64,000 nucleotides of DNA from Nanobdellati archaeon (lineage in GTDB: Archaea; Nanobdellota; Nanobdellia; CSSed11-243R1): contig JALTFL010000002.1 in NCBI GenBank assembly GCA_027007025.1, positions 167,066-231,065 on the forward strand, in the 5' to 3' direction. The stretch's first letter is position 1; every line of letters starts with the position of its first letter. The notes beneath the pieces are model-generated. The model had not been told where the DNA came from. It did no database searches and was given only the letters and a program-made list of their open reading frames with translations. Of this stretch, positions 1,657-62,709 are shown in pieces. Both the position numbers and the translations under genes were made by a program.

Positions 1657-2328
1657 TCAATGTGTGATATCATATTTTAATCTATTCTTTTCTTTCGGCA
1701 CCCAATGCTTTTTTATGCCTTCCGTAAATTCTTTTGGAACATATTTTGCTCTATAAATGTTGTAATTTTCATCGTCAATCCTTATAACCAACCCTTCTTT
1801 TTTTGACGCTCCAAAATTGGAATTTTCGATTAAATGTTCAAGGTTATCCTTTCCATTTATACTTCCTTCGTAGATTGGTTGGTTATACACAATTTTTGTA
1901 TTATTTAGTATTCTAGACACTTTTTTTTGTGACAAAAATTTTTGTTCATTAGCATCAAATATATCATATGCAATGAAATAGGATGGAAGAGATAGATAAT
2001 GTATCGAGTGTTTCCAAAATACCCATTCACCAATCAAATACAAATTTTTATCGGATATCTTTTTTATTTCTTTTTCGTGTGTTTTATACCACAAGTCGAG
2101 ACTTTTGAATTTTGTGTCATAACCTGTAACAATACTACTTCTGCTTTTAAAATGTGGGCCAGCTTCGTCCGCGAAAATCATTAAATTATTCCCATCAATT
2201 TTCTCTTGAATTATCACATTAGATTCTAAAAATAACTTTACTTTATCCTTGTCTAATATCTTATCTTCGCGTGTGCCCTTTGAGAATATATAGGGTGTTT
2301 TTGGAAATTTGAACTCTTGCCACTTCAT
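1657..2328 (-). CDS. ATP-dependent RNA/DNA ligase-like nucleotidyltransferase (Rnl2-like minimal domain)
   Basis: Motif I KxDG (QEKIDGNN), motif IV EGLVIR and motif V AKYVPK are in the correct order. The protein is 223 aa with no OB domain. Confidence 0.5.
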   Translation of the reverse strand: MKWQEFKFPKTPYIFSKGTREDKILDKDKVKLFLESNVIIQEKIDGNNLMIFADEAGPHFKSRSSIVTGYDTKFKSLDLWYKTHEKEIKKISDKNLYLIGEWVFWKHSIHYLSLPSYFIAYDIFDANEQKFLSQKKVSRILNNTKIVYNQPIYEGSINGKDNLEHLIENSNFGASKKEGLVIRIDDENYNIYRAKYVPKEFTEGIKKHWVPKEKNRLKYDITH

Positions 2329-2384
2329 AATAGATTAATTTATCGTTATGCCTTTATAAAATTTACTACATATTAGTAGTAAGA

Positions 2385-2885
2385 CTAATATGCTTTTAAT
2401 TCTCTTTGTATATAAATCTCAGAAGGTATAACATCAACACCTATTGTTTGGTAACCATTTAGAATCTCTTCTATGTCACTATCTGAAGATATAATTTTAA
2501 CATTGTTCTGCTGTTTTGAAAGGGTATACGCAAGTTTAAGAAGAGCTGCATCCCCAAGTCCAACTCTACTATTTTTTTTGTATGAACAGTCTCTTAACGC
2601 GCCTTCTAAACTTTTGATATCAGTGTTGGTTATACCGACGTTCACTAAAGTTATTCTATCGTTCCCTATTAACCCCCACAATTTTTCCATAAGTCTTCCT
2701 GGAACAAGCAATTTTCCATCATCGCTATGTCTATGGTCATACTGTTGATGTATTAATTCATTCAAAACTTCATTAGGGAGTATATAATTGCCATCTAGCT
2801 CTTCAAGCTTGCCCTTATTGTAGAGTGTTATAACTGCTTGAGTGTCCAGAAGATATATAGGGTTTTCATCTTGAGCATTTATCAT
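2385..2885 (-). CDS. PIN-domain nuclease
   Basis: The acidic tetrad spacing matches a PIN fold: D in IYLLDTQ, E in PNEVLNEL, D in LGDAALLKLA, D in SSDSDI. It sits directly upstream of the ligase on the same strand. Confidence 0.45.
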   Translation of the reverse strand: MINAQDENPIYLLDTQAVITLYNKGKLEELDGNYILPNEVLNELIHQQYDHRHSDDGKLLVPGRLMEKLWGLIGNDRITLVNVGITNTDIKSLEGALRDCSYKKNSRVGLGDAALLKLAYTLSKQQNNVKIISSDSDIEEILNGYQTIGVDVIPSEIYIQRELKAY

Positions 2886-3184
2886 TTGTTCCTCACCAAC
2901 ATATTAATACATCAATTGTTTATAAATGTTACTACTATTAAGTAAATACATAGAGAAAGATTTATAAATACAACACTCTTTATTTCATTGTTGAAAATGA
3001 AACCAAAAGGCGATTATCGGAATTGAATCCTTCTTTGGAGATTTGCTTAGTTATATTTCTGAATTTCAGTCATATTCTCTAAAGTTTTCAGGAGGTGAAA
3101 TTATGGAAACTAGAGTTAAGAAGACAGGTGGTCGTCGGAATCACCAAAGAAAAACATTTTAAGCGTGAGGTAGTGAAGTATTCT

Positions 3185-4453
3185 ATGGATTTTGTTGAAA
3201 TTGGAGACATTTTGGATGGAAAACACACGGGCGAGAAGGTTGCGATTCGCGGATGGGTTTACAGGGAAAGAAAGCAAAAATCTGTTTCGTTTTTTTTGAT
3301 AAGGGATGATTCAGGAATAATACAAACAGCCGTCAAGCCCGGTTCTGAGTTTTGGGAAGACTCCCAGAAGCTCACGGTTGAGTCGTCAGTTAAAGTTTGG
3401 GGAACTGTCAAGGAAGACAAGAGAGCCCCGGGTGGATACGAAATCCAAGTAGAAAAACTTGAGATAGTCGGCATTGCGGAGAGGTTCCCAATCACGAAGG
3501 ACCAGAGCGAGGAATTCCTGAGAGATGTAAGGCATCTGTGGATTCGCAGCAGAAAAATGACGCTGTTCTTCAAGATAAGGAGTTTTGTGTTCGAAGCAAT
3601 ACATGAGTTTTACAAGAAGAAAGGATTCTATGAGATTCAGGCGCCAAGCTTTACGGGCTCCGCCTGCGAGGGGGGCTCTACGTTGTTCGAGGTGAAATAC
3701 TTCGACAAGAAGGCGTATTTGACGCAGTCGTGGCAGCTGTACGGCGAAGCAATGATTTTTTCCCTTCAGAAAATATATACTATTGCTCCGAGCTTCCGAG
3801 CCGAGAAAAGTAGGACAAGGAGACATCTCGCGGAATACTGGCACCACGAAATGGAAGCCGCGTGGATGCAGTTCGACGAGCTTTTGGAATTCGAGGAAGA
3901 GTTCGTAACTTTCGTGGCACATTATGTCGCGGAAAAGTGCGGCAAGGAACTCAAGGAGCTTGGAAGGGATGTTGAGGAGCTCAAGAAACTGAAACCTCCC
4001 TTCAAGAGAATGAGATATGAAGAGGCAATCAAAAAGCTCGGGAAGGAGTGGGGCTATGACTTGACGGACGCTGACGAAAGGAAACTTGTCGCGGAAATAG
4101 GTGCGCCGGTTTTCATAACCCATTTTCCGAGGGATATGAAAGCATTTTACATGCGCCCGGACCCTAAAGATAAGAAAGTCGTGCTTGCCGCTGATTTGTT
4201 GATTCCTGGAGTTGGCGAAACAACAGGCGGAAGCGAGAGAATCTATGACTTAAAGGAATTGGAAGAATCCCTTGAATTGTTCAAGCTTGACAAGAAGGAT
4301 TATGACTGGTACATTGACTTGAGGAGATATGGAACGGTTCCCCATTCAGGATTCGGACTCGGCATTGAAAGGTTGGTTATGTGGCTCGCCGGAGCGGAGC
4401 ACATAATGGAAACAATTCCATTCCCGAGAACAATTGTCCGGTTGCACCCTTAA
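3185..4453 (+). CDS. asnS: asparaginyl-tRNA synthetase (class II)
   Basis: Class II motifs are present (FRAEKSRTRRHLAEYWHHEMEAAWM, GGSERIYD, GFGLGIERLVMWL). The N-terminus aligns with archaeal AsnRS at MDFVEIGDILDG. The ORF track extends to GTG 3095. The likely ATG is 3185, with GAGGT at 3167-3171. Confidence 0.85.
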   Translation: MDFVEIGDILDGKHTGEKVAIRGWVYRERKQKSVSFFLIRDDSGIIQTAVKPGSEFWEDSQKLTVESSVKVWGTVKEDKRAPGGYEIQVEKLEIVGIAERFPITKDQSEEFLRDVRHLWIRSRKMTLFFKIRSFVFEAIHEFYKKKGFYEIQAPSFTGSACEGGSTLFEVKYFDKKAYLTQSWQLYGEAMIFSLQKIYTIAPSFRAEKSRTRRHLAEYWHHEMEAAWMQFDELLEFEEEFVTFVAHYVAEKCGKELKELGRDVEELKKLKPPFKRMRYEEAIKKLGKEWGYDLTDADERKLVAEIGAPVFITHFPRDMKAFYMRPDPKDKKVVLAADLLIPGVGETTGGSERIYDLKELEESLELFKLDKKDYDWYIDLRRYGTVPHSGFGLGIERLVMWLAGAEHIMETIPFPRTIVRLHP

Positions 4454-4511: not shown

Positions 4512-4688
4512 GGCCGCGTAGCTCAAGCACACCCTTCTTAAGAAGAAGCGTGTACGGAAGAAGGGGGGTGCGGCAAGGCGGTTAGAGCGGCAGCCTGTTA
4601 AAGAACCCTTTCTTAGAAAGAAAGCGTTCACGGAAAGAAGGGGTTGGCTGTAAGCTGTAGGTCGGCGGTTCGAATCCGCCCGCGGCCG
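4512..4688 (+). tRNA. tRNA-Asn(GTT), two introns
   Basis: Acceptor GGCCGCG/CGCGGCC with discriminator G. D-stem GCTC/GAGC. Anticodon stem GCAGC/GCTGT with loop CTGTTAA. Variable region AGGTC. T-arm GGCGG-TTCGAAT-CCGCC. Intron 1 is about 4529-4578 in the D-loop. Intron 2 is about 4602-4653 at 37/38. TATA CTTTATAAA at 4479-4487, about -27. Confidence 0.75.
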
Positions 4689-4708
4689 CTTTCTTAATTT
4701 ATATAAAT

Positions 4709-8412: not shown

Positions 8413-9516
8413 TTACTTAATTAACATCAATGTTTGGTATAAAATACCAGTGGTAAAGATAAGAATAGAATAATATATCGGTAAGTTTCCGCCTGGAATA
8501 ATCTTTTTGAATTTCTTCGTTTTTCTTGCTTTTAGGGCCATTACCATAGTCAACAAGCCGAGCATTCCGCCGGCGTATGTACCTGAGATTTGAAGGAATG
8601 TTATGAAACCCAATTTGACATACACATAAATTAGAAATGGTATGAACGCTGAAAGGAACCATGACATCCTTTTGTCAAGTCCAAAGTCGTTTACATACAC
8701 ATGTTTTATCGCGTCAGACAATGCTATGAACGGAACACCCATTGCGATTAGCACGAACAAATCCCCCAATATTCTGTAATGGGGCAGTCCAACAACAGCG
8801 ACTTCATTTACGCCAGTTCCCAAGCTGCCGACAAAAACATACGAGAACAAGGCATATGTTGACAACACTATTAGCATTGCAATTGTGCTTGCGGTTATTA
8901 CCTTTCTTTTGTCTTTTCCAAGGACTTTTTTCATTTCAGGAATTACATTGTAACCCAGACATGAGAATAATACAATCCCGAAAGGAATGAATATCTTTGA
9001 TGAGCTTAAAATGAAATTCTGTGAATTGCTTGCAGATGGAATGAAAACTGCTATCAAAAACACCAGCAGAATGATTTTTAGCGCCGCAATCGACAAATCA
9101 AGCTTGTTGAACCTCTTGAAGCCGAACAAAATCAAAGCCGCAGCAAACACGAAGAATGCAGTTCCCATTATCAATGGGCTTCCGCCAAGCATGTCCGCAA
9201 GGGCATATCCAATTGCTATAAGGTATGCTATTATCGCGGTATATATACCGAACGTTTCTGTCGCGAGCGTGAAAAATTTTCCTTTTCTTCCGAAATACTT
9301 CTTGGCGAGTCCGGATATCATATGCTCCTTTTTTTCGTTAAGCGACAATTCTGCGATATAAAGAGTCATAAATGTTGTCGCAATTCCGACGATGATGATA
9401 GTCACTAAACCTGTCAAAAATCCAATTTGTGAAAAAATATAGGGAAATCCAAGAATTGAAGCGCCGGCCACTGTGCTGACCATGAGTGCAACTGCAGTAA
9501 AAAGCTTCGAGTTCAT
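8413..9516 (-). CDS. amino acid permease (Trp/Tyr-permease / AAAP-like)
   Basis: Polytopic protein similar to aromatic amino acid permeases. The start is trimmed to an internal Met (MNSKLF) because the longer ORF would overlap the tRNA 5' end at 9560. Confidence 0.5.
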   Translation of the reverse strand: MNSKLFTAVALMVSTVAGASILGFPYIFSQIGFLTGLVTIIIVGIATTFMTLYIAELSLNEKKEHMISGLAKKYFGRKGKFFTLATETFGIYTAIIAYLIAIGYALADMLGGSPLIMGTAFFVFAAALILFGFKRFNKLDLSIAALKIILLVFLIAVFIPSASNSQNFILSSSKIFIPFGIVLFSCLGYNVIPEMKKVLGKDKRKVITASTIAMLIVLSTYALFSYVFVGSLGTGVNEVAVVGLPHYRILGDLFVLIAMGVPFIALSDAIKHVYVNDFGLDKRMSWFLSAFIPFLIYVYVKLGFITFLQISGTYAGGMLGLLTMVMALKARKTKKFKKIIPGGNLPIYYSILIFTTGILYQTLMLIK

Positions 9517-9559
9517 ACATAGTAAAGCTTTTAATATATTTATATTATTTTCTAAGTAT

Positions 9560-9812
9560 GCTCCCATAGTCTAGGAACCCTTTCTTGGGAAGAAAGCGTT
9601 CACGGAAAGAACCAAGAGAGGGATGGACATTCCGGTCAAGGATGCTGGACTCTCGCAACACCCTTTCTTAAAAGAAAGCGTGTACGGAAAGAACTTCCGT
9701 GGTGTTGGGGATATCCAGTGACCCGGGTTCAAAAGCACTTTCTCTCTTTGAAAAGAGAGAACCTGCGCTAAGAGAGAAACTTGGCGAGTGTTTGAAAGTC
9801 CCGGTGGGAGCA
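9560..9812 (+). tRNA. tRNA-Glu(CTC) (probable), three introns
   Basis: Acceptor GCTCCCA/TGGGAGC with discriminator A. D-stem GTCT/GGAT. Anticodon stem CTGGA/TCCAG with loop CTCTCG..A. T-arm CCGGG-TTCAAA..-CCCGG. Introns about 9576-9633 (D-loop), 9656-9712 (anticodon loop) and 9734-9797 (T-loop). TATA-like AT tract 9526-9545. T-tract after 9812. Confidence 0.6.
9718..9804 (+). repeat. 87-nt T-arm+T-loop-intron module, identical to 24327..24413
   Basis: GTGACCCGGGTTCAAAAGCAC...GTTTGAAAGTCCCGG reads identically in tRNA-Glu and tRNA-Gly(TCC). A diverged copy on the minus strand lies at about 38235..38292. Confidence 0.8.
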
Positions 9813-9884
9813 TTTTTTCTTTTTAGAAAATGTAAAATTTTATGAAGAATTAAATAAAAGGTATTTAATTATAATAAGAAGTAG

Positions 9885-20786: not shown

Positions 20787-20940
20787 GCCTCGGTGGCGCA
20801 GTCGGTAGCGCGTAAGCCTTTTCTTTCCGTAAGAAAAGCATTAAGGGAAAAGAGATGGCTGTGCAGTTGCTTGGTAATTGGCTGCGTTTGGAAGCTTTCC
20901 AATGAGCAAAAGGTCGTGGGTTCGAATCCCACCCGAGGCT
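20787..20940 (+). tRNA. tRNA-Thr(GGT), two introns
   Basis: Acceptor GCCTCGG/CCGAGGC with discriminator T. D-arm GCGC-AGTCGGTA-GCGC. Intron 1 about 20813-20865, after position 26. Anticodon stem GTTGC/GCAAA with loop TTGGTAA. Intron 2 about 20878-20905 (28 nt, 37/38). Variable region AGGTC. T-arm GTGGG-TTCGAAT-CCCAC. Confidence 0.6.
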
Positions 20941-24182: not shown

Positions 24183-24421
24183 GCGCCGTTAGTCTAGCGA
24201 CCTTTTCTCTCGAGAAAAGCTCGACCAAAAGAGAGAAGGTTGGACAATGGTTAGGATCCGAGCCTTCCACCAACCCTTTCTTTCCAAAAGAAAGCGTTGA
24301 CGGAAAGAAAGGTAGGAGGTGAGCTCGTGACCCGGGTTCAAAAGCACTTTCTCTCTTTGAAAAGAGAGAACCTGCGCTAAGAGAGAAACTTGGCGAGTGT
24401 TTGAAAGTCCCGGACGGCGCA
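24183..24421 (+). tRNA. tRNA-Gly(TCC), three introns
   Basis: Acceptor GCGCCGT/ACGGCGC with discriminator A. D GTCT-AGC..GGTTA-GGAT. Anticodon stem CGAGC/GCTCG with loop CTTCCA..A. Variable region TGAC. T-arm CCGGG-TTCAAA..-CCCGG. Introns about 24199-24248 (D-loop), 24270-24321 (37/38) and 24343-24407 (T-loop). T7 tract after 24421. Confidence 0.7.
24327..24413 (+). repeat. second copy of the 87-nt T-arm+intron module
   Basis: See 9718..9804. Confidence 0.8.
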
Positions 24422-25333: not shown

Positions 25334-25454
25334 GCGCCACTAGTCTATTGGTAGGATACGAGCTTCCCAAGACCTTTTCTTTGGGAAAGAAAAGCTCTAC
25401 CAAAAGAAAGGTTGTAAACAGCTCGGGAGCCGGGTTCGATTCCCGGGTGGCGCA
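25334..25454 (+). tRNA. tRNA-Gly(CCC), one canonical anticodon-loop intron
   Basis: Acceptor GCGCCAC/GTGGCGC with discriminator A. D GTCT-ATTGGTA-GGAT. Anticodon stem CGAGC/GCTCG with loop TTCCCAA. Intron about 25371-25420 (50 nt, 37/38). Variable region GGAG. T-arm CCGGG-TTCGATT-CCCGG. Confidence 0.8.
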
Positions 25455-29419: not shown

Positions 29420-29845
29420 ATGGAAACCAAAGTCATTAAGGAAGTACTAATTAAATCTGCTAAAAGCATTTACAACAGCTTACCAATCTTGATAGGCGCG
29501 ATTTTGCTTATAGGGTTGGTAAGCGCTGCAGTTCCCAAATCATACTATGGAATGCTTTTCAGCAAAAATCCGGTCATTGATTCTTTTATAGGAAGCGGCA
29601 TAGGGAGTATCTTAGCAGGAAACCCCGTGACAAGTTACATACTCGGCGGTGAGTTTTTGAAGCAGGGAGTCAGCCTTGTTGCTGTAACCGCGTTTTTGGT
29701 TGCATGGGTTACTGTAGGTATTGTCCAATATCCCGCGGAAGCGATTTTGCTTGGAAAGAAATTCGCACTATATAGAAACATAAGCGCGTTTTTCCTCGCG
29801 ATAGTCGTGGCGATTATAACTGTCGTGGTGGTGAGAGTCATATGA
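29420..29845 (+). CDS. predicted permease subunit (DUF318-like)
   Basis: 4 TM. Start overlaps the next gene. Confidence 0.45.
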   Translation: METKVIKEVLIKSAKSIYNSLPILIGAILLIGLVSAAVPKSYYGMLFSKNPVIDSFIGSGIGSILAGNPVTSYILGGEFLKQGVSLVAVTAFLVAWVTVGIVQYPAEAILLGKKFALYRNISAFFLAIVVAIITVVVVRVI

Positions 29846-30348
29846 AACGCACCGAAAAAAGCATGGCGGGATGGTACTTTTTGATTTCAGTAATCATACT
29901 TTACGTAATCTCATTTTTCATAAGCAAAAAAATTACGCTAAACGGATTAAGATATACTATTAAGATTTTTGAAAAGGTAATCCCAATCTTCGTGCTGATT
30001 TATGTTTTGCTTGTGTTAATCAACTACTTTGTCAAGCCGAAATCCCTGGCAAAGCATCTTGGCGAGGGCTCCGGAATAAAGGGATGGACAATCGCAGTTG
30101 TCGCGGGAATACTTTCAAGCGGACCAATTTATATGTGGTATCCATTGCTAAATGAGTTGCAAAAGCACGGAGTAAGGAATGGTTTGATTGCAGTATTCCT
30201 TTACAACAGAGCTGTTAAGCCGGCGCTTTTGCCATTGATAATCTTTTACTTTGGATTGAAATTTACAATTGTTTTGACAATTGTAATGATTGGTGTTTCC
30301 ATAATCCAAGGTATGATGATAGATAAATTTGTGGAGGTGAAATCATGA
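29842..30348 (+). CDS. predicted permease subunit
   Basis: 5 TM. Translationally coupled (ATGA overlap). Confidence 0.45.
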   Translation: MKRTEKSMAGWYFLISVIILYVISFFISKKITLNGLRYTIKIFEKVIPIFVLIYVLLVLINYFVKPKSLAKHLGEGSGIKGWTIAVVAGILSSGPIYMWYPLLNELQKHGVRNGLIAVFLYNRAVKPALLPLIIFYFGLKFTIVLTIVMIGVSIIQGMMIDKFVEVKS

Positions 30349-31007: not shown

Positions 31008-31738
31008 ATGGAACCCAAAATTAAGGCTAAAAATGTTACTTTGATAACTATTTATGACAACTATCAATATAACCCTAAATTAAAAACAGGGTGGGGCTTT
31101 TCTTGCCTAGTAAAAGTGAATGGAAAAAATATTTTGTTTGATACAGGAGGAAATGATTCTATCCTGTTAGGTAACATGGAAAAGATGAACATTGATCCAA
31201 ATCAAATAGATATTGTTGTATTATCACATATTCATGGAGACCATACTGGTGGGTTAACCGAATTTCTAGAAAAAATAGCAATGTAACTGTTTATGTGCCA
31301 CACGCCTTTCCCAAAAGCTTTAAAGCCAATGTTAAAAGTAGGGGAGTAAAAGTGATTGACGTCGATAAACCAATAAAAATTTTTAATTCTATTTACACAA
31401 CTGGCGAGCTTGGAACATTCATCAAAGAACAATCCTTAGTAATAACATCAGACAAAGGCTTAATTATTGTAACTGGTTGTTCTCACCCAGGTATTGTTAA
31501 TATTGTAAAAAAGGCCGAAGAAATTTTTGACAAAGAAGTTTATTTAGTTATAGGCGGATTTCATTTAATTGGAAGTTCCGATTCTGAATTAAAGAGTATC
31601 ATATCTGATTTTAGAAAACTTGGTGTCAAAAATGTAGCCCCTTGTCACTGCAGTGGAGATAGAGCAAGAGAATTATTTCGAGAGGAATATGGAGAGAACT
31701 TTATAAATAATGGCGTAGGAAAAATTATTAAAGTGTAG
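31008..31738 (+). pseudogene. MBL-fold metallo-hydrolase interrupted by a frameshift at an A6 run
   Basis: Two ORFs (31008..31286 and 31295..31738) form one MBL protein (HIHGDH motif in part 1). The frames rejoin if the A6 run at 31270-31275 is read as A7 (..FLEKNSNVTVYVPHAF..). Confidence 0.55.
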
Positions 31739-38201: not shown

Positions 38202-38393
38202 CGCCGGGACTGGGACTTCCACGCACCGCCAAGAGTTTCTCTCTTAGCGCAGGTTCTCTCTTTTCAAAGAGAGAAAGTGCTTTTGAACCCAGACATCCCG
38301 AAGGAAACAGGCTCTCGTAGACTTCTTTGGTCGAGCTTTCTTCCAAAGAAAGGTCATTCCAGGCCTGCGCAATACCAAGTTATGCGATCCCGG
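38202..38393 (-). tRNA. tRNA-Ser(GGA), class II, two introns
   Basis: Minus strand. Acceptor GCCGGGA/TCCCGGC with discriminator G. Anticodon stem CAGGC/GCCTG with loop CTGGAA(A/T). Long variable arm TTTCCTTCGGGATGT. T-arm CTGGG-TTCAAA..-CCCAG. Introns at 37/38 (about 43 nt) and in the T-loop (about 65 nt). TATA TTTATAAAAC on the minus strand at 38419-38428, about -30. T5 tract downstream. Confidence 0.7.
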
Positions 38394-39479: not shown

Positions 39480-39737
39480 GTGATGAGTGTAGTTGCCTAT
39501 GTGCTTTTGAATGTAAGAAAAGGTGGAAATAATAACGTAGCGGAATTGTTAAGGAATATGCAAGGCATCATTGACGTCACCGAGCTTTATGGAGAGTATG
39601 ACATCATAGCAAAAGTCGAGAAGGAGAACATGGAAGAATTGCAAAGATTTTTAATAAACAACATACGTTCTATAAAAGAAATAGAGCAAACCGCTACCAT
39701 GATTGCAACAAGTGAAAAATATGGCATCAATAGATGA
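39480..39737 (+). CDS. stand-alone Lrp/AsnC RAM-domain protein
   Basis: 85 aa with a beta-alpha-beta-beta-alpha-beta pattern, typical of the AsnC C-terminal domain. Confidence 0.5.
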   Translation: MMSVVAYVLLNVRKGGNNNVAELLRNMQGIIDVTELYGEYDIIAKVEKENMEELQRFLINNIRSIKEIEQTATMIATSEKYGINR

Positions 39738-40050
39738 CTTCCAAAAATTAGACATTCGTGTGGGCAAGATATTGTCTGCTGAATTGCATGAAAAGGCAAG
39801 AAAGCCTATGTACAAATTAGTTATTGATTTCGGCGAAGAAATAGGTAGAAAAAATGCCGTCGCCGGGGTAACGGAATTTTACAGCAGGGACGAGCTTGTT
39901 GGAAAAATTGTAGTCGCGATAGTCAATCTCGAGCCTAAAACCATTGCGGGGTTTACTTCTGAATGTATGACGCTTGGGGCGCTTGATGAGGATAAGTTCG
40001 CGCTTCTAATGCCCGACAAAGAAGTAAAGCTAGGTAGTAAAATTTATTAA
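39703..40050 (+). CDS. csaA: tRNA-binding protein (CsaA/Trbp111 OB-fold)
   Basis: LDIRVGKILSAELHEKARKPMYKLVIDFGEE...VGKIVVAIVNLEPKTIAGFTSECMTLGA. Possible start at 39721. Confidence 0.7.
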   Translation: MQQVKNMASIDDFQKLDIRVGKILSAELHEKARKPMYKLVIDFGEEIGRKNAVAGVTEFYSRDELVGKIVVAIVNLEPKTIAGFTSECMTLGALDEDKFALLMPDKEVKLGSKIY

Positions 40051-40071: not shown

Positions 40072-40716
40072 ATGAGAAAACAACTTGAGGATATGCTTGG
40101 TATTCACACACGTGAAGAATTTCTAAAAGTAATTGAAGAAAAATATAAAAAAGACCCAGATTATAGATTATCTCTTGATCCATCTCTATATAGGTTGGGG
40201 TATAAGAGACGCTTTGATTGGAATCTTGCTGATTCAGAAGGAAATTTCTCTCTAAGTAGGTTGGAAGAAGAAATTGTTGGGAAATCTAGAAGAGAAACTA
40301 ATGTTGTTTGGACAAAAGAAACAATTTTGTATTGCGTAAAATATTTTGTTGATAAGAGTATGTTTAGCTCAGAAAATCCAATGAATGTAGAAATTAGACT
40401 TCCGAGTGGGGATTTGGTTAATGTTTCTCCAAAGAAAGTTTATAACATTGCTTCAAAAAAAAGAAAGATGTTTTCAAGAAATAATAGATTCGTTGGTTTG
40501 AGTGGTTTAGTGAACATGGCATGTGGGGAATATATTGAACCTAATAATATGGACTTAAAAGAGGAAGTAGTTAGGTGGTGGTATTCCACTCACGGTTTTT
40601 TTGGAGTTGATAAGATGATGATTTCTCCAGAGATGTCATGGGCGCAAATTGAAAAACATACAGGTAGAACAAGGCGGCAAATTATCAGTGAGATGGGTAA
40701 ACACCAACAGGCATAG
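40072..40716 (+). CDS. hypothetical protein
   Basis: 214 aa. Confidence 0.35.
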   Translation: MRKQLEDMLGIHTREEFLKVIEEKYKKDPDYRLSLDPSLYRLGYKRRFDWNLADSEGNFSLSRLEEEIVGKSRRETNVVWTKETILYCVKYFVDKSMFSSENPMNVEIRLPSGDLVNVSPKKVYNIASKKRKMFSRNNRFVGLSGLVNMACGEYIEPNNMDLKEEVVRWWYSTHGFFGVDKMMISPEMSWAQIEKHTGRTRRQIISEMGKHQQA

Positions 40717-41671
40717 TAACCCTGTCAAGTTTTACCGCTATTCCCTTTTCAGCCTCAACCATGCCCTGCGAGCGCATTTGTGCAAATCCGATACCTACAA
40801 GCTCGTTCTTTAATGTCATTACTGCAACTTCATTTCCTTTTTTTATACCCTCTTCGACTTTTGAGATTCCAGGGACTCCAAGGGGCGCGCCGTGAGTAAG
40901 GGAATCAACTGTAGAATCAAATACCCATACCTTCGGCACGAGCTTTGTGACATTTTCCATTGGCTGCATGACATACCTCAAATATTTTTCGTTGCCCTCT
41001 TCCTTCCAGAAGGCGTATGCATCCTCCAAGTCCTGAAGGGTTGCCATTCTTTCGTCTTCTTTGAATCCGCCTGCCTTTGTTCTTCTCAATTCTGCCATGT
41101 GAGCGCGGGTTCCAGCCATCGAGCCGAGCTGCTCGCAAAGTCTTCGTATGTATGTTCCCTTTTCAGTTCCGGCTCTGAATAACACATCTCTTCCTTTTTT
41201 CTCTATGAATTCCAAATAATAAATCTCCCTTTCTCTGACTACACGCTTCACGTGGGAGCGCTTTGGCGGGAGTTGTTCTATCTTGCCTATGAATTTTTTC
41301 ATGGCATCTCTTATTTTTCCCTCATGTATGTCAGAGTGCAGGTGCATGAGCGCGACATATTCCTTTCCGGACAGCAGAAACAATCTCATTATCTTCGTGG
41401 CGTTGTTTATTGCAATTGGAAGGACTCCTGTTACTGCCGGGTCCAGCGTCCCTCCGTGCCCTGCCTTTTTGGCGTGAAGTATTTTTTTTACCCAGTCGCT
41501 TACCTGGTGGCTTGTGGGTCCCTTCGGCTTGTCAAGATTTATGATTCCATTTTTTAAATATTCATCAATTGGCCTCTTTTCAGGAATGTAACCATAGCTA
41601 AAGTCAGTCTCATCTTCCTTGCGGATGAGTATTTCTCTTTTTTCCATTTTCTCGTACGGCAGTTGTCCCAT
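40685..41671 (-). CDS. cbf5: H/ACA RNP pseudouridine synthase Cbf5 (TruB family)
   Basis: Catalytic GHGGTLDP motif. KPKGPTSH. C-terminal PUA domain. Confidence 0.85.
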   Translation of the reverse strand: MGQLPYEKMEKREILIRKEDETDFSYGYIPEKRPIDEYLKNGIINLDKPKGPTSHQVSDWVKKILHAKKAGHGGTLDPAVTGVLPIAINNATKIMRLFLLSGKEYVALMHLHSDIHEGKIRDAMKKFIGKIEQLPPKRSHVKRVVREREIYYLEFIEKKGRDVLFRAGTEKGTYIRRLCEQLGSMAGTRAHMAELRRTKAGGFKEDERMATLQDLEDAYAFWKEEGNEKYLRYVMQPMENVTKLVPKVWVFDSTVDSLTHGAPLGVPGISKVEEGIKKGNEVAVMTLKNELVGIGFAQMRSQGMVEAEKGIAVKLDRVTMPVGVYPSH

Positions 41672-60740: not shown

Positions 60741-60797
60741 TTTTTAATCTATGAATATTAAAATATAATAGTTAATAAAATTTACTACTTTTTAGTG

Positions 60798-62261
60798 TTA
60801 TCCTTTGACAACACCAAGGGGCTTCAGTCTTGCGACAAGATTTCCTATTCCTGCCTCTTGACTGACTCTTGCGACTTCGTCGATGTCTTTGTAGGCGCCC
60901 GGCGCTTCCTCCGCAACCCCACGCTTTGACGCTGATTTTATTATAATGCCTCTTTCTCCAAGCTGCTTCTTAATGATATCTGCTTGATACTGTCGCATTG
61001 CGGCGTGCCTGCTCATCAACCTTCCAGCCCCGTGCGCAGTTGAGCCGAACGTCTTTTCCATTGATGTTGAGCTTCCAGCCAGTACGTAGCTTGCGGTTCC
61101 CATACTTCCGGGAATAAGCACAGGTTGCCCAACATCCCTATAATCTATTGGTATCTCAGGGCGCCCTGGACCAAATGCCCGGGTTGCGCCCTTCCTGTGA
61201 ACATAAACTTTTCTCAATTTTCCGTTAATCTTATGCTCTTCGACTTTTGCGAGGTTGTGAGCTACGTCATATACGAGTTCCATGCCGAGGGATTCCCAGT
61301 CTTTTTTGAAAACTTCTTCGAATGCCTGCCTACTCCAGTGCATAATCATCTGTCTGTTTGTCCACGCGAAGTTTGCCGCCGCGCTCATTGCCTTGAAATA
61401 TTTTTCAGCGAGCTCGCTTCCTGACGGCGCGTAAATCAATTCCCTGTCGGGTAAAGTTTTAATTATGTCCGGAAATGTTTTTTCCATCTCGCGGAGGTAG
61501 TCTGAACATACTTGGTGTCCGAATCCGCGGCTACCCGTGTGAATCATCAACGTTGCTTGTCCTTCCTCAAGCCCGAATGCCTTGGCTGCTTTTTTGTCAA
61601 ATATTTTTTCGACATATTGAACTTCAAGGAAATGGTTTCCTGCTCCGAGGCTTCCTAGTTGTGGCATACCTCTCTTTTTGGCTTCCTTGCTGGTGTATCT
61701 CGGGTCCGCGATTTTCAATCTTCCATTTTCTTCTATGTGTTTCAAGTCCCTTTCGGCACCGTATTCATTTTCAACAGCCCACTCAACACCATATTTCAAG
61801 ACTTTGTTAAACTCATCGACGTTTTTTATTCTAGTGAGTCCCTTGCTGCCGAGCCCGCTTGGAACATTCTTAAACAGGGCGTTTAGAATTGGTTTCATAT
61901 TATCTTCGGCATCTTTTTTTGTTAGGTTTGTTCTTATCAATCTAACTCCACAATTTATATCATAACCAATTCCGCCCGGCGATATCCCACCGTTTTCATA
62001 GTCGAGTGCCGCGACTCCACCTATTGGGAATCCATATCCCTCGTGTCCGTCTGGAAGAATTATGGAATACTTGTAAATGCCCGGCAGTGTCGCTACCCCC
62101 GCGCCCTGCGTTAGTGTCCTGTCTTGTTTCATTTTGTTCAACAATTTTTCAGACGCAAAAACTCTTCCTGGAACGTTCATATTTGGCACGGTTCCAACTG
62201 GGATTTCCCATTCGACGTCGCTTATTTTCTTCAATTCCAAATTATTGATTTCTTTCATCAT
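60798..62261 (-). CDS. rtcB: RNA-splicing ligase RtcB (tRNA 3'-phosphate/5'-OH ligase)
   Basis: Metal-binding GYDINCG, NHF, HTGSRGFGHQV, HNLA motifs. Start at ATGATG after the GAGGTGG SD. The track extends to TTG 62285. Confidence 0.9.
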   Translation of the reverse strand: MMKEINNLELKKISDVEWEIPVGTVPNMNVPGRVFASEKLLNKMKQDRTLTQGAGVATLPGIYKYSIILPDGHEGYGFPIGGVAALDYENGGISPGGIGYDINCGVRLIRTNLTKKDAEDNMKPILNALFKNVPSGLGSKGLTRIKNVDEFNKVLKYGVEWAVENEYGAERDLKHIEENGRLKIADPRYTSKEAKKRGMPQLGSLGAGNHFLEVQYVEKIFDKKAAKAFGLEEGQATLMIHTGSRGFGHQVCSDYLREMEKTFPDIIKTLPDRELIYAPSGSELAEKYFKAMSAAANFAWTNRQMIMHWSRQAFEEVFKKDWESLGMELVYDVAHNLAKVEEHKINGKLRKVYVHRKGATRAFGPGRPEIPIDYRDVGQPVLIPGSMGTASYVLAGSSTSMEKTFGSTAHGAGRLMSRHAAMRQYQADIIKKQLGERGIIIKSASKRGVAEEAPGAYKDIDEVARVSQEAGIGNLVARLKPLGVVKG

Positions 62262-62274
62262 TACCACCTCAGAA

Positions 62275-62709
62275 TCATATATCAATTAACACCTTTATTA
62301 TGTATTTATTATTTTCTTTTTTTATTTCCATATAATGATATGTTATTGCCTTTACATGAGTGCCTTCCTCGTGCTTTTCAGGGTTGTACTTTTCGCCCCC
62401 CGCCTCTGCTCTAAGATACCATTTTCCTTCTTTTTCATCGATTTTTTTAACTTTGACATTATGGAACACCAACCCTTCGGCGTCCTGCAGTATTAGAAAT
62501 TGCGAGAGGAAATCAAACAAGAGAGATTCCTTATCCTCTGACGAAATATGGATGGTTTTTTTCACGTTTTTGCCCACATTGTCCGAAACCACAATCGCAT
62601 AGCCTAATCCCACAGCCGCGTTTTCAAATGCTTCTTCTAGTGTATCTCCCCACGATTCAATATACATGTCCGCCGTGTGCTCCAAAAACCTGAATTTTTT
62701 TTTGCTCAT
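62275..62709 (-). CDS. archease (RtcB activator)
   Basis: FRFLEHTADMYIESWG N-terminal archease signature. Directly upstream of rtcB. Confidence 0.8.
   Translation of the reverse strand: MSKKKFRFLEHTADMYIESWGDTLEEAFENAAVGLGYAIVVSDNVGKNVKKTIHISSEDKESLLFDFLSQFLILQDAEGLVFHNVKVKKIDEKEGKWYLRAEAGGEKYNPEKHEEGTHVKAITYHYMEIKKENNKYIIKVLIDI

Follow-up and report, generated by a model that had tools for sequence, protein, structure and literature searches.

A PIN-fold nuclease gene linked to the gene for a minimal ATP-dependent RNA ligase in DPANN archaea

Why should a DPANN archaeon that carries the archease-RtcB operon also encode a second RNA ligase of the ATP-dependent kind, directly beside the gene for a putative nuclease? 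This question is raised by a stretch of 64,000 nucleotides of contig JALTFL010000002.1 from a Nanobdellati archaeon (assembly GCA_027007025.1, positions 167,066 to 231,065 of the forward strand), the whole of which is referred to here as the window. Near the start of the window, a 223-aa ligase consisting of the catalytic domain only is encoded downstream of a 166-aa protein with a predicted PIN fold, and the same two genes are found next to each other in three DPANN phyla. We propose that the pair forms a functionally coupled module that cuts and seals RNA, a reading whose chances we put at about even. The window has a base composition of 38% G+C and a high coding density. Both proteins have 100% identical copies on European Nucleotide Archive (ENA) scaffold ERZ23495180 (528 kb) and in assembly GCA_015522785.1, their nearest named relatives carry the label 'Nanoarchaeota archaeon', and the host is a DPANN archaeon. 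A first-pass annotation of the sequence had described an archease-RtcB operon together with a separate cassette of a PIN nuclease and a minimal KxDG ligase of the 5'-phosphate type. All four open reading frames (ORFs), for RtcB, archease and the 223-aa and 166-aa proteins, are present as annotated, and family profiles, motifs and a fold match bear out the four identities, with the ligase belonging to the RNA-ligase family.

The minimal ligase and its PIN-fold neighbor

The two genes of the pair are as follows.
1657..2328, minus strand: ATP-dependent RNA ligase, nucleotidyltransferase domain only, 223 aa (PF09414, RNA_ligase)
2385..2885, minus strand: predicted PIN-fold metallonuclease, 166 aa, member of a rare ligase-linked family (AlphaFold and Foldseek, invariant residues, relatives)

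The 223-aa protein matches PF09414 with an E-value of 1.1e-24 and 87.9 bits (cut-off 27) and the phage family phrog_24030, 'RNA ligase', with an E-value of 4e-19, whereas the family profile searches gave no meaningful match to DNA-ligase or capping models. Its motif I reads EKIDGNN, with K43 as the lysine, and the residues that are invariant in the 11 paired orthologues comprise E42-K43-x-D45-G46 (motif I), E101 (III), D122 (IIIa), E178-G179 (IV), and R193/K195 (V). The same motifs I, III, IIIa, IV, and V are found in the Rnl3 ligases of known structure (PabRnl, 2VUG; MthRnl, 5D1P; PpaRnl, 8UCE; Aquifex, 3QWU). When a profile of the 11 paired ligases was compared with all PDB sequences, the best match was 3QWU (E 6e-11), the Rnl3 homologue of Aquifex aeolicus (PMC11040149), and other Rnl3 enzymes were matched at 9e-4 (PpaRnl) and 8e-3 (PabRnl). 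The similarity to ligases outside Rnl3 is weak, with E-values of 0.035 for NgrRnl (Rnl5) and 0.19 for T4 Rnl2, and by this profile comparison the catalytic domain is nearer to Rnl3 than to the other Rnl families.

The alignment with 3QWU spans only residues 65-233 of 370. Rnl3 is composed of an N-terminal domain (residues 1-63), a catalytic domain (64-241), a dimerization domain (242-312), and a C-terminal domain (313-380) (PMC11040149), and the 223-aa protein scores 21.5 bits on the Rnl3 equivalog model TIGR01209, for which the cut-off is 136.9. Because the match is limited to the catalytic domain and the equivalog score falls below its cut-off, the protein is best described as a bare Rnl3-like catalytic core and not as an Rnl3 ligase, and the homodimeric architecture of Rnl3 is impossible for it since the dimerization domain is absent. 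There are ~36 residues ahead of motif I and ~28 after motif V, with neither the C-terminal helical domain of Rnl2 nor the N-terminal oligonucleotide-binding (OB) module of Rnl5. T4 Rnl2 and the Rnl5 enzymes NgrRnl and DraRnl are members of the same PF09414 superfamily, and a stand-alone domain of similar size exists there as an experimental truncation (T4 Rnl2 1-249, PDB 1S68), in contrast to the natural enzymes, in which the additional domain is present. All of the paired ligases in the 11-sequence alignment are 223-270 aa long and consist of the catalytic domain only.

In the ligases of three Micrarchaeota loci (L013:4165-4860, L014:2634-3320, and L017:3212-3889), the stretch from motif I to motif III is ~37 residues shorter and lacks the region that holds motif Ia, K-S-R, in the other ligases. 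These proteins also have a ~13-residue insertion further along the chain, while their catalytic residues are otherwise retained.

The 166-aa protein has no above-threshold family match in Pfam, NCBIfam, PHROGs or PADLOC and no sequence match in the PDB, the best Pfam PIN match being PF01850 with 13.6 bits (cut-off 23.6, E 0.11). An AlphaFold model built from a two-sequence alignment, with a predicted local distance difference test score (pLDDT) of 83.3 and a predicted template modeling score (pTM) of 0.80, has the alternating order of strands and helices of a three-layer alpha/beta/alpha PIN fold. Comparison of the model with the PDB by Foldseek returned VapC, Rrp44-PIN, PAE2754, PIN proteins of Pyrococcus and Pyrobaculum, and SMG6-PIN, with a probability of 1.00 and E-values down to 4e-5; 17 of the matches have an E-value <= 1e-3, and SMG6-PIN lies just below that cut-off. 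The family is rare: when 1.84 billion cluster representatives were searched exhaustively with HMMER, only 37 relatives (clusters) were obtained, 11 of them at E <= 1e-10. Among the 28 aligned members, PIN_4 is matched by 11, PIN_12 by nine, and PIN by five, with best E-values of 8.9e-6 for PIN_4 and 2.2e-5 for PIN, and the family profile weakly matches the PIN domains of MJ1533, AF0591, Utp24, and VapC6 in the PDB. Residues D14-T15, E43, N105, R107, D135, and D137 are invariant in the 28-sequence alignment, position 112 is acidic (D/E), and the family has motifs of its own, N-S-R-x-G-x-G-D and D-S-D, as well as a conserved loop with R52, G57, and P62. Judged by its modeled fold, its acidic residues, and its relatives, the 166-aa protein is a predicted PIN nuclease. 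The first-pass annotation had allowed that the ligase might fall into a DNA-ligase or mRNA-capping clade, or that the PIN assignment might be spurious. The best matches of the ligase are PF09414 and the catalytic domains of Rnl3, and the Foldseek matches, the invariant acidic residues, and the Pfam matches of the relatives all speak for the PIN assignment.

Linkage of the two genes in DPANN archaea

Conservation of the gene pair in related genomes, proposed earlier as a check, was found to be strongly positive across DPANN phyla. The loci with a linked ligase are listed below with the lineage (identity in parentheses), the gene order, and the distance between the genes.
Window clade (PIN identity 51-100%), in the window, L001, and L003: PIN then ligase, gaps of 56, 54, and 5 nt
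P0006 (38-39%), in L104 and L008: PIN then ligase, 61 nt
P0009 (32%), in L022: PIN then ligase, 59 nt
P0014, Woesearchaeota, in L106: co-oriented, 14-nt overlap
P0011, Woesearchaeota, in L105: co-oriented, 53 nt
P0023 (28%), Woesearchaeota by its TFIIB neighbor, in L010: co-oriented, 4-nt overlap
Three Micrarchaeota loci (24-26%), in L013-L019: divergent, 111-140 nt apart

The pair is thus present in seven of eight lineages whose mutual PIN identity is at most about 40%, drawn from Nanoarchaeota, Woesearchaeota, and Micrarchaeota, and the linkage calls were confirmed when the six-frame ORFs of every locus were re-scanned with hidden Markov models (HMMs). In L008 the downstream ORF is incomplete and begins MEFKEFSFPHTPH, compared with MKWQEFKFPKTPY at the start of the query ligase, and the ligase of L106 carries the IMG name 'ATP-dependent RNA circularization protein'. 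The flanking genes are entirely different between most lineages. The pairwise identities of the PIN proteins and of the ligases co-vary, with r = 0.89 over 45 pairs that are not independent of one another, and this agreement is consistent with co-inheritance. In a control set of 80 viral contigs that encode PF09414 ligases, none carries this PIN family, and a viral-contig scan with the PIN alignment gave no viral relatives. The conservation of the pair across DPANN phyla supports a functional nuclease-ligase module. The other homologue scans were narrower in reach: word-index searches gave two to three close relatives each, a metagenome scan with a narrow alignment gave two loci, and a genome-contig scan with the ligase gave only the known Nanoarchaeota metagenome-assembled genome.

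The regions between and upstream of the two genes of the window contain the following features, where BRE denotes the transcription factor B recognition element.
2329..2384, minus strand: PIN-ligase spacer, 56 nt, with the BRE/TATA element GTAGTAAATTTTATAAA at about 2353-2369, ~32 nt before the ligase ATG
2886..3094, no strand assigned: divergent promoter region between the PIN gene and a class-II aminoacyl-tRNA synthetase gene, with the PIN BRE/TATA element at about 2919-2936
3095..4453, plus strand: AsnRS/AspRS-type class-II aminoacyl-tRNA synthetase, divergent neighbor of the PIN gene, with tRNA_anti-codon and tRNA-synt_2 domains
2353-2369, 2919-2936, 60773-60789, and 40034-40049: examples of the BRE/TATA promoter consensus

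The promoter consensus of the organism, AGTAA(A/C)-n-TTTAWAA (BRE and TATA), is located ~25-45 nt ahead of the start codons of many genes, a distance that implies short leaders or leaderless transcripts. For the PIN gene, the element GTAGTAACATTTATAAA is positioned ~41 nt before the ATG and is accompanied by the Shine-Dalgarno-like site GGTGAGG. The BRE/TATA element of the spacer is kept in L001, L104, L008, and L022 and, because of it, the ligase can be transcribed alone in the window lineage; read-through from the PIN gene is also possible, since there is no oligo-T terminator between the two genes. In other lineages the overlaps of 4-14 nt and the 5-nt gap imply co-transcription and translational coupling. 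The earlier description of the two genes as a cassette, if taken to mean an obligatory operon, is not supported in the window lineage, where each gene has its own BRE/TATA element, although the genes of relatives overlap by 4-14 nt. A dedicated shared operator, GTAGTAAC-TTTATAAA upstream of both genes, was considered as well and rejected, because AGTAA-n-TTTAWA is the general BRE/TATA sequence that many window genes have.

An AsnRS-type gene is the divergent neighbor of the PIN gene in the window, L104, and L022, which are loci of the Nanoarchaeota/Woesearchaeota type, and a protein that shares a 90% cluster with the neighbor in L104 is named asparaginyl-tRNA synthetase. In the Micrarchaeota loci L013-L019, a GlyRS gene is located ~40 nt downstream of the PIN gene in the same orientation. 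Synthetase genes beside the PIN gene in two DPANN phyla give a weak hint at a tRNA-related substrate. A comparable association has been reported for PIN_5, which co-occurs with tRNA synthetase and tRNA methyltransferase genes.

Several observations weigh against functional coupling of the pair. With a BRE/TATA element for each gene, co-transcription is not required in the window lineage. The P0007 lineage, represented by L020 (a 7-kb contig with a sigma-70 gene), has no ligase within 3 kb upstream of its PIN gene or within the ~0.6 kb downstream to the contig end. A PIN-ligase fusion was not found among the family members, the longer proteins P0022, P0027, P0038, and P0017 having no ligase domain. 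The structure model of the ligase, from a 3-sequence alignment, is poor (pLDDT 41), and the adjacency of the synthetase genes is only suggestive as a clue to the substrate. For L020, a hidden divergent ligase beside the PIN gene was also considered and was rejected when the neighboring genes were compared with the ligase profile (hhalign probability <= 0.3%).

The separate promoters and the P0007 lineage could be accounted for if the two genes were uncoupled neighbors, each an independent housekeeping gene, with the ligase acting alone, for example in nick-sealing repair or as an RNA/DNA 5'-adenylyltransferase. Synteny is generally well kept among close relatives, which would favor such a situation, and Rnl3 enzymes are able to adenylylate both DNA and RNA while their ligation is weak (PMC12153264, PMC11040149). 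We consider this explanation quite unlikely, however, because the two genes remain adjacent across three phyla even where all flanking genes have been replaced and their relative orientation has been inverted, because translational coupling is implied where the stop and start codons overlap (by 4 and 14 nt), and because the HMM re-scan of the loci never placed the PIN family beside other PF09414 ligases.

The fold of the 166-aa protein also has to be considered in terms of conflict systems, where PIN would be a VapC-like ribotoxin and the ligase an 'antitoxin' that repairs or neutralizes its cuts, or where the two would form a defense/counter-defense pair. VapC toxins are the best structural matches of the PIN model, which shares its fold and the acidic active-site residues with them and with the eukaryotic PIN_4 nucleases (SMG6 and the Rrp44 PIN domain). 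About one fifth of PIN proteins are part of toxin-antitoxin systems, and operons of PIN_3 and a ligase have been proposed to be conflict systems in which the ligase neutralizes nucleases (PMC5499597). An integrase, furthermore, is located ~7 kb away in the ERZ relative. In contrast to VapC and PIN_4 proteins, the PIN protein described here is not accompanied by a VapB-type antitoxin and has the N-S-R-x-G-x-G-D and D-S-D motifs and the R52/G57/P62 loop of its own family. Ahead of the PIN ATG, 209 nt with promoter elements only are followed by the divergent synthetase gene, with no VapB-like or other small antitoxin gene and no helix-turn-helix gene. The PIN gene is present in a single copy in the window, PADLOC returned nothing for the ligase and, for PIN, just two weak matches below the threshold (E 0.012 and 0.029), and the co-divergence of PIN and ligase and the absence of the pair from viral contigs likewise argue against a toxin and its antidote. 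Genomes of about 0.5-1 Mb have kept the pair, whose position beside Pelota, aminoacyl-tRNA synthetase, and methyltransferase genes is conserved between lineages with only 32% PIN identity. A toxin-antidote or conflict function is thus unlikely in our view. The retention in such small genomes without an antitoxin, a significant PADLOC match or a viral copy, together with the conserved position, points to a housekeeping rather than a defensive role, and the defense/counter-defense alternative offered by the first-pass annotation is disfavored on these grounds and by the vertical co-divergence of the two proteins.

Archease-RtcB, tRNA genes, and other features of the window

The second RNA ligase of the window is encoded at its other end.
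60798..62285, minus strand: RtcB 3'-phosphate/5'-OH RNA ligase (PF01139, E 6.7e-175, 582.8 bits, cut-off 27, model positions 3-426 of 426)
62275..62709, minus strand: archease, 144 aa, RtcB activator and first gene of the operon (PF01951, E 2e-43, 148.4 bits, cut-off 25)

Archease-RtcB is the standard archaeal ligase for the 2',3'-cyclic-phosphate and 5'-OH ends that arise in tRNA splicing. The archease, which also scores 136.3 bits on NF001617 (cut-off 126), is encoded immediately ahead of RtcB in the same orientation, with an overlap of 11 nt if the TTG start of RtcB is used or 13 nt before the ATG at 62261, which is the more likely start. Counted from the TTG, RtcB is 495 aa long, with the DINCGVR and HGAGR motifs in its translation, and its length indicates that no intein is present. 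The operon is the expected tRNA-splicing ligase in its textbook arrangement; this part of the window is ordinary and already known, a standard example whose chemistry and position are unrelated to the PIN-ligase pair. The earlier finding had been placed at 60798-62709, where the genes are real, but these coordinates span only the ordinary archease-RtcB part, and the PIN and ligase genes are located at 1657-2885. As ~58 kb separates the two sites, they are joined by theme only. The tRNA-handling genes that had been grouped with them are confirmed, 39703-40050 encoding a tRNA_bind domain protein and 40685-41671 encoding Cbf5, and intron-bearing tRNA genes are indeed present in the window, at 20787-20940 and at about 4512-4688.

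The first of these tRNAs is spread over 154 nt (20787-20940) in the Rfam match. The second, at ~4512-4688 on the plus strand directly downstream of the AsnRS-type gene, is interrupted twice, by inserts at about 4528-4570 and about 4601-4645, and the anticodon loop CTGTTAA, read by eye, suggests tRNA-Asn(GUU). This gene was missed by ARAGORN with default settings and at the Rfam gathering threshold, and the intron mode of ARAGORN gives 4512-4689 with the intron misplaced. The inserts at 4528-4570, 4601-4645, and 20812-20870 have in common a hairpin-like motif of ~40 nt, CCCTTTCTT..AAGAAAG..GGAAAGAAGGGG, and may be related introns or mobile intron-like elements; a similar string is found upstream of the ORF at 8413-9567. 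A weak tRNA-like match at 25351-25447 on the plus strand, reported as tmRNA (18.8 bits, E 0.0015), is probably another disrupted or intron-bearing tRNA gene that is missed by the standard finders.

The window and the 528-kb ENA scaffold are 98.6% identical up to position 9813, beyond which the scaffold has a 406-aa tyrosine integrase that the window does not have (compared over L004 1-515). An 85-nt piece beside the scaffold integrase recurs twice in the window, at 24327-24413 and 38209-38290, with 95% identity, and may be an attachment-site or tRNA-related repeat, which would imply a strain-variable integrated element ~7 kb from the PIN-ligase pair. Next to the pair itself, a 256-aa ORF on the plus strand (886-1656) ends exactly at the end of the convergent ligase gene. 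Close relatives conserve this ORF, which is 262 aa long in L001, and Pfam, NCBIfam, PHROGs, and PADLOC gave no match for it. The regions 29420-30348 and 31008-31286 hold two adjacent ORFs that both align with one and the same N-terminal portion of the ArsP_1 permease model, and a 92-aa ORF in which only the beginning of a metallo-beta-lactamase domain is matched; the genes here may have been split or be in decay.

The HARP-Rnl3 precedent and a proposed cut-and-seal mechanism

A linkage of a PIN-superfamily nuclease with a ligase has been published for HARP and Rnl3, and this precedent makes the PIN-ligase idea less novel than was first thought. The association was first noted for the family PIN_5 (PF08745), whose genes were found together with those for the TIGR01209 ligase and for a tRNA methyltransferase and synthetase (Matelska et al. 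2017, PMC5499597). Of the genomes that carry HARP, 89% also have Rnl3, and the two genes are often adjacent and usually divergent (Seshadri & Gopalan, mBio 2025, PMC12153264). HARP-Rnl3 is known from halophiles and thermophiles, and the proposals for its function comprise 5' processing with circularization of C/D-box sRNAs, a toxin-antitoxin pair, and the removal of 5'-adenylylated leaders (PMC12153264). After cleavage by HARP the mature 5' end keeps its phosphate, and the protruding-helix/spike-helix domain of HARP is responsible for dimerization and for reading the tRNA elbow (PMC12217051). HARP forms oligomers, from tetramers to dodecamers, and cleaves the 5' leader of pre-tRNAs. As in HARP-Rnl3, the gene of a small PIN-superfamily metallonuclease is found here beside that of an ATP-dependent ligase with an Rnl3-type catalytic domain, often in divergent orientation, with a patchy, lineage-restricted distribution, tRNA-related genes nearby, and predicted ends that are compatible (5'-phosphate and 3'-OH). 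The two systems differ in that the PIN protein here does not belong to PIN_5, the ligase is 223 aa long instead of about 380 aa and is missing the N-terminal, dimerization, and C-terminal domains, and the genes, found in DPANN hosts, are mostly co-oriented with short gaps or overlaps.

Such parallels could mean that the PIN protein is itself a divergent HARP-like protein-only RNase P, or another nuclease of tRNA ends, and the pair a true miniaturized orthologue of HARP-Rnl3. The ligase is indeed nearest to Rnl3 catalytic domains, above all to that of Aquifex, and the divergent arrangement typical of HARP-Rnl3 is found in the Micrarchaeota loci. The published company of PIN_5 is mirrored by the synthetase genes that flank PIN in two phyla and by a methyltransferase gene nearby, and the DT and DSD motifs resemble D7-T8 and D138-S139 of HARP. 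However, none of the 28 family members matches PF08745, even at E-values up to 10, the matches being to PIN_4, PIN_12, and PIN instead, and NCBIfam likewise gave no match. There is no HARP chain among the PDB sequence-profile matches at E <= 10 or among the top 50 Foldseek matches, and the PIN model does not contain the long protruding-/spike-helix insertion, having only short helices at 38-49 and 63-74 and no long helical hairpin. A HARP-like identity is thus very unlikely. Protein subunits of RNase P were also sought in the presumed ribosomal-protein cluster at 28-33 kb of the window, where the ORFs are unrelated. On the basis of sequence and model comparisons, the predicted DPANN pair is a second case of the published linkage between PIN and Rnl3-type proteins, its nuclease falling outside HARP and its ligase outside Rnl3. 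A description of a DPANN or Woesearchaeota PIN-ligase module was not found in the literature, of which our coverage was incomplete.

Metal-dependent PIN-like nucleases leave 5'-phosphate and 3'-OH ends, and ATP-dependent ligases seal a 5'-phosphate to a 3'-OH via lysine-AMP and 5'-adenylylated RNA (AppRNA), whereas RtcB acts on 3'-phosphate and 5'-OH ends. Ends of the PIN type would therefore be usable by an ATP-dependent ligase without end-healing. In the cut-and-seal mechanism proposed here, the PIN protein, acting as an Mg/Mn endoribonuclease, would recognize and cut a structured cellular RNA, the most plausible candidates being precursors of tRNAs or small RNAs, to yield 5'-phosphate and 3'-OH ends. 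The ligase would then form lysine-AMP at K43, transfer the AMP to give AppRNA, and complete the phosphodiester bond, so that the product of the PIN cut would be either sealed or circularized. In Rnl1-6 it is an extra domain that confers substrate specificity, and Rnl2 depends on its C-terminal domain to adenylylate RNA (PMC11040149). Since the 223-aa ligase is without all of the accessory RNA-binding and dimerization domains of Rnl1-6, substrate binding would probably be supplied in trans by the PIN partner, in a complex with the ligase. The module would represent a vertically inherited housekeeping function of DPANN archaea and a miniature, non-orthologous counterpart of HARP-Rnl3. A more specific version, which is possible but rather doubtful and is put forward only tentatively, would have the pair as a heteromeric DPANN cut-and-seal enzyme in which PIN replaces the missing binding domains of the ligase; it would process small structured RNAs, such as tRNA and C/D-box sRNA precursors, and circularize or re-join them, possibly replacing RNase-P-type 5' processing in some reduced genomes.

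The role of archaeal ATP-dependent RNA ligases, and the reason why HARP travels with Rnl3, were raised as questions in 2025. The DPANN pair would provide a second example for both, composed of a PIN family that is unrelated to HARP at the family level and an Rnl3-like core. The linkage persists in DPANN genomes, which keep little that is dispensable, and it can therefore be argued that nuclease-ligase coupling is a general, selected design and not a coincidence of extremophiles. With only two proteins, of 166 and 223 aa, the system is much simpler for biochemical tests, and its ligase, a bare catalytic domain, would be a minimal natural RNA ligase whose specificity may come in trans.

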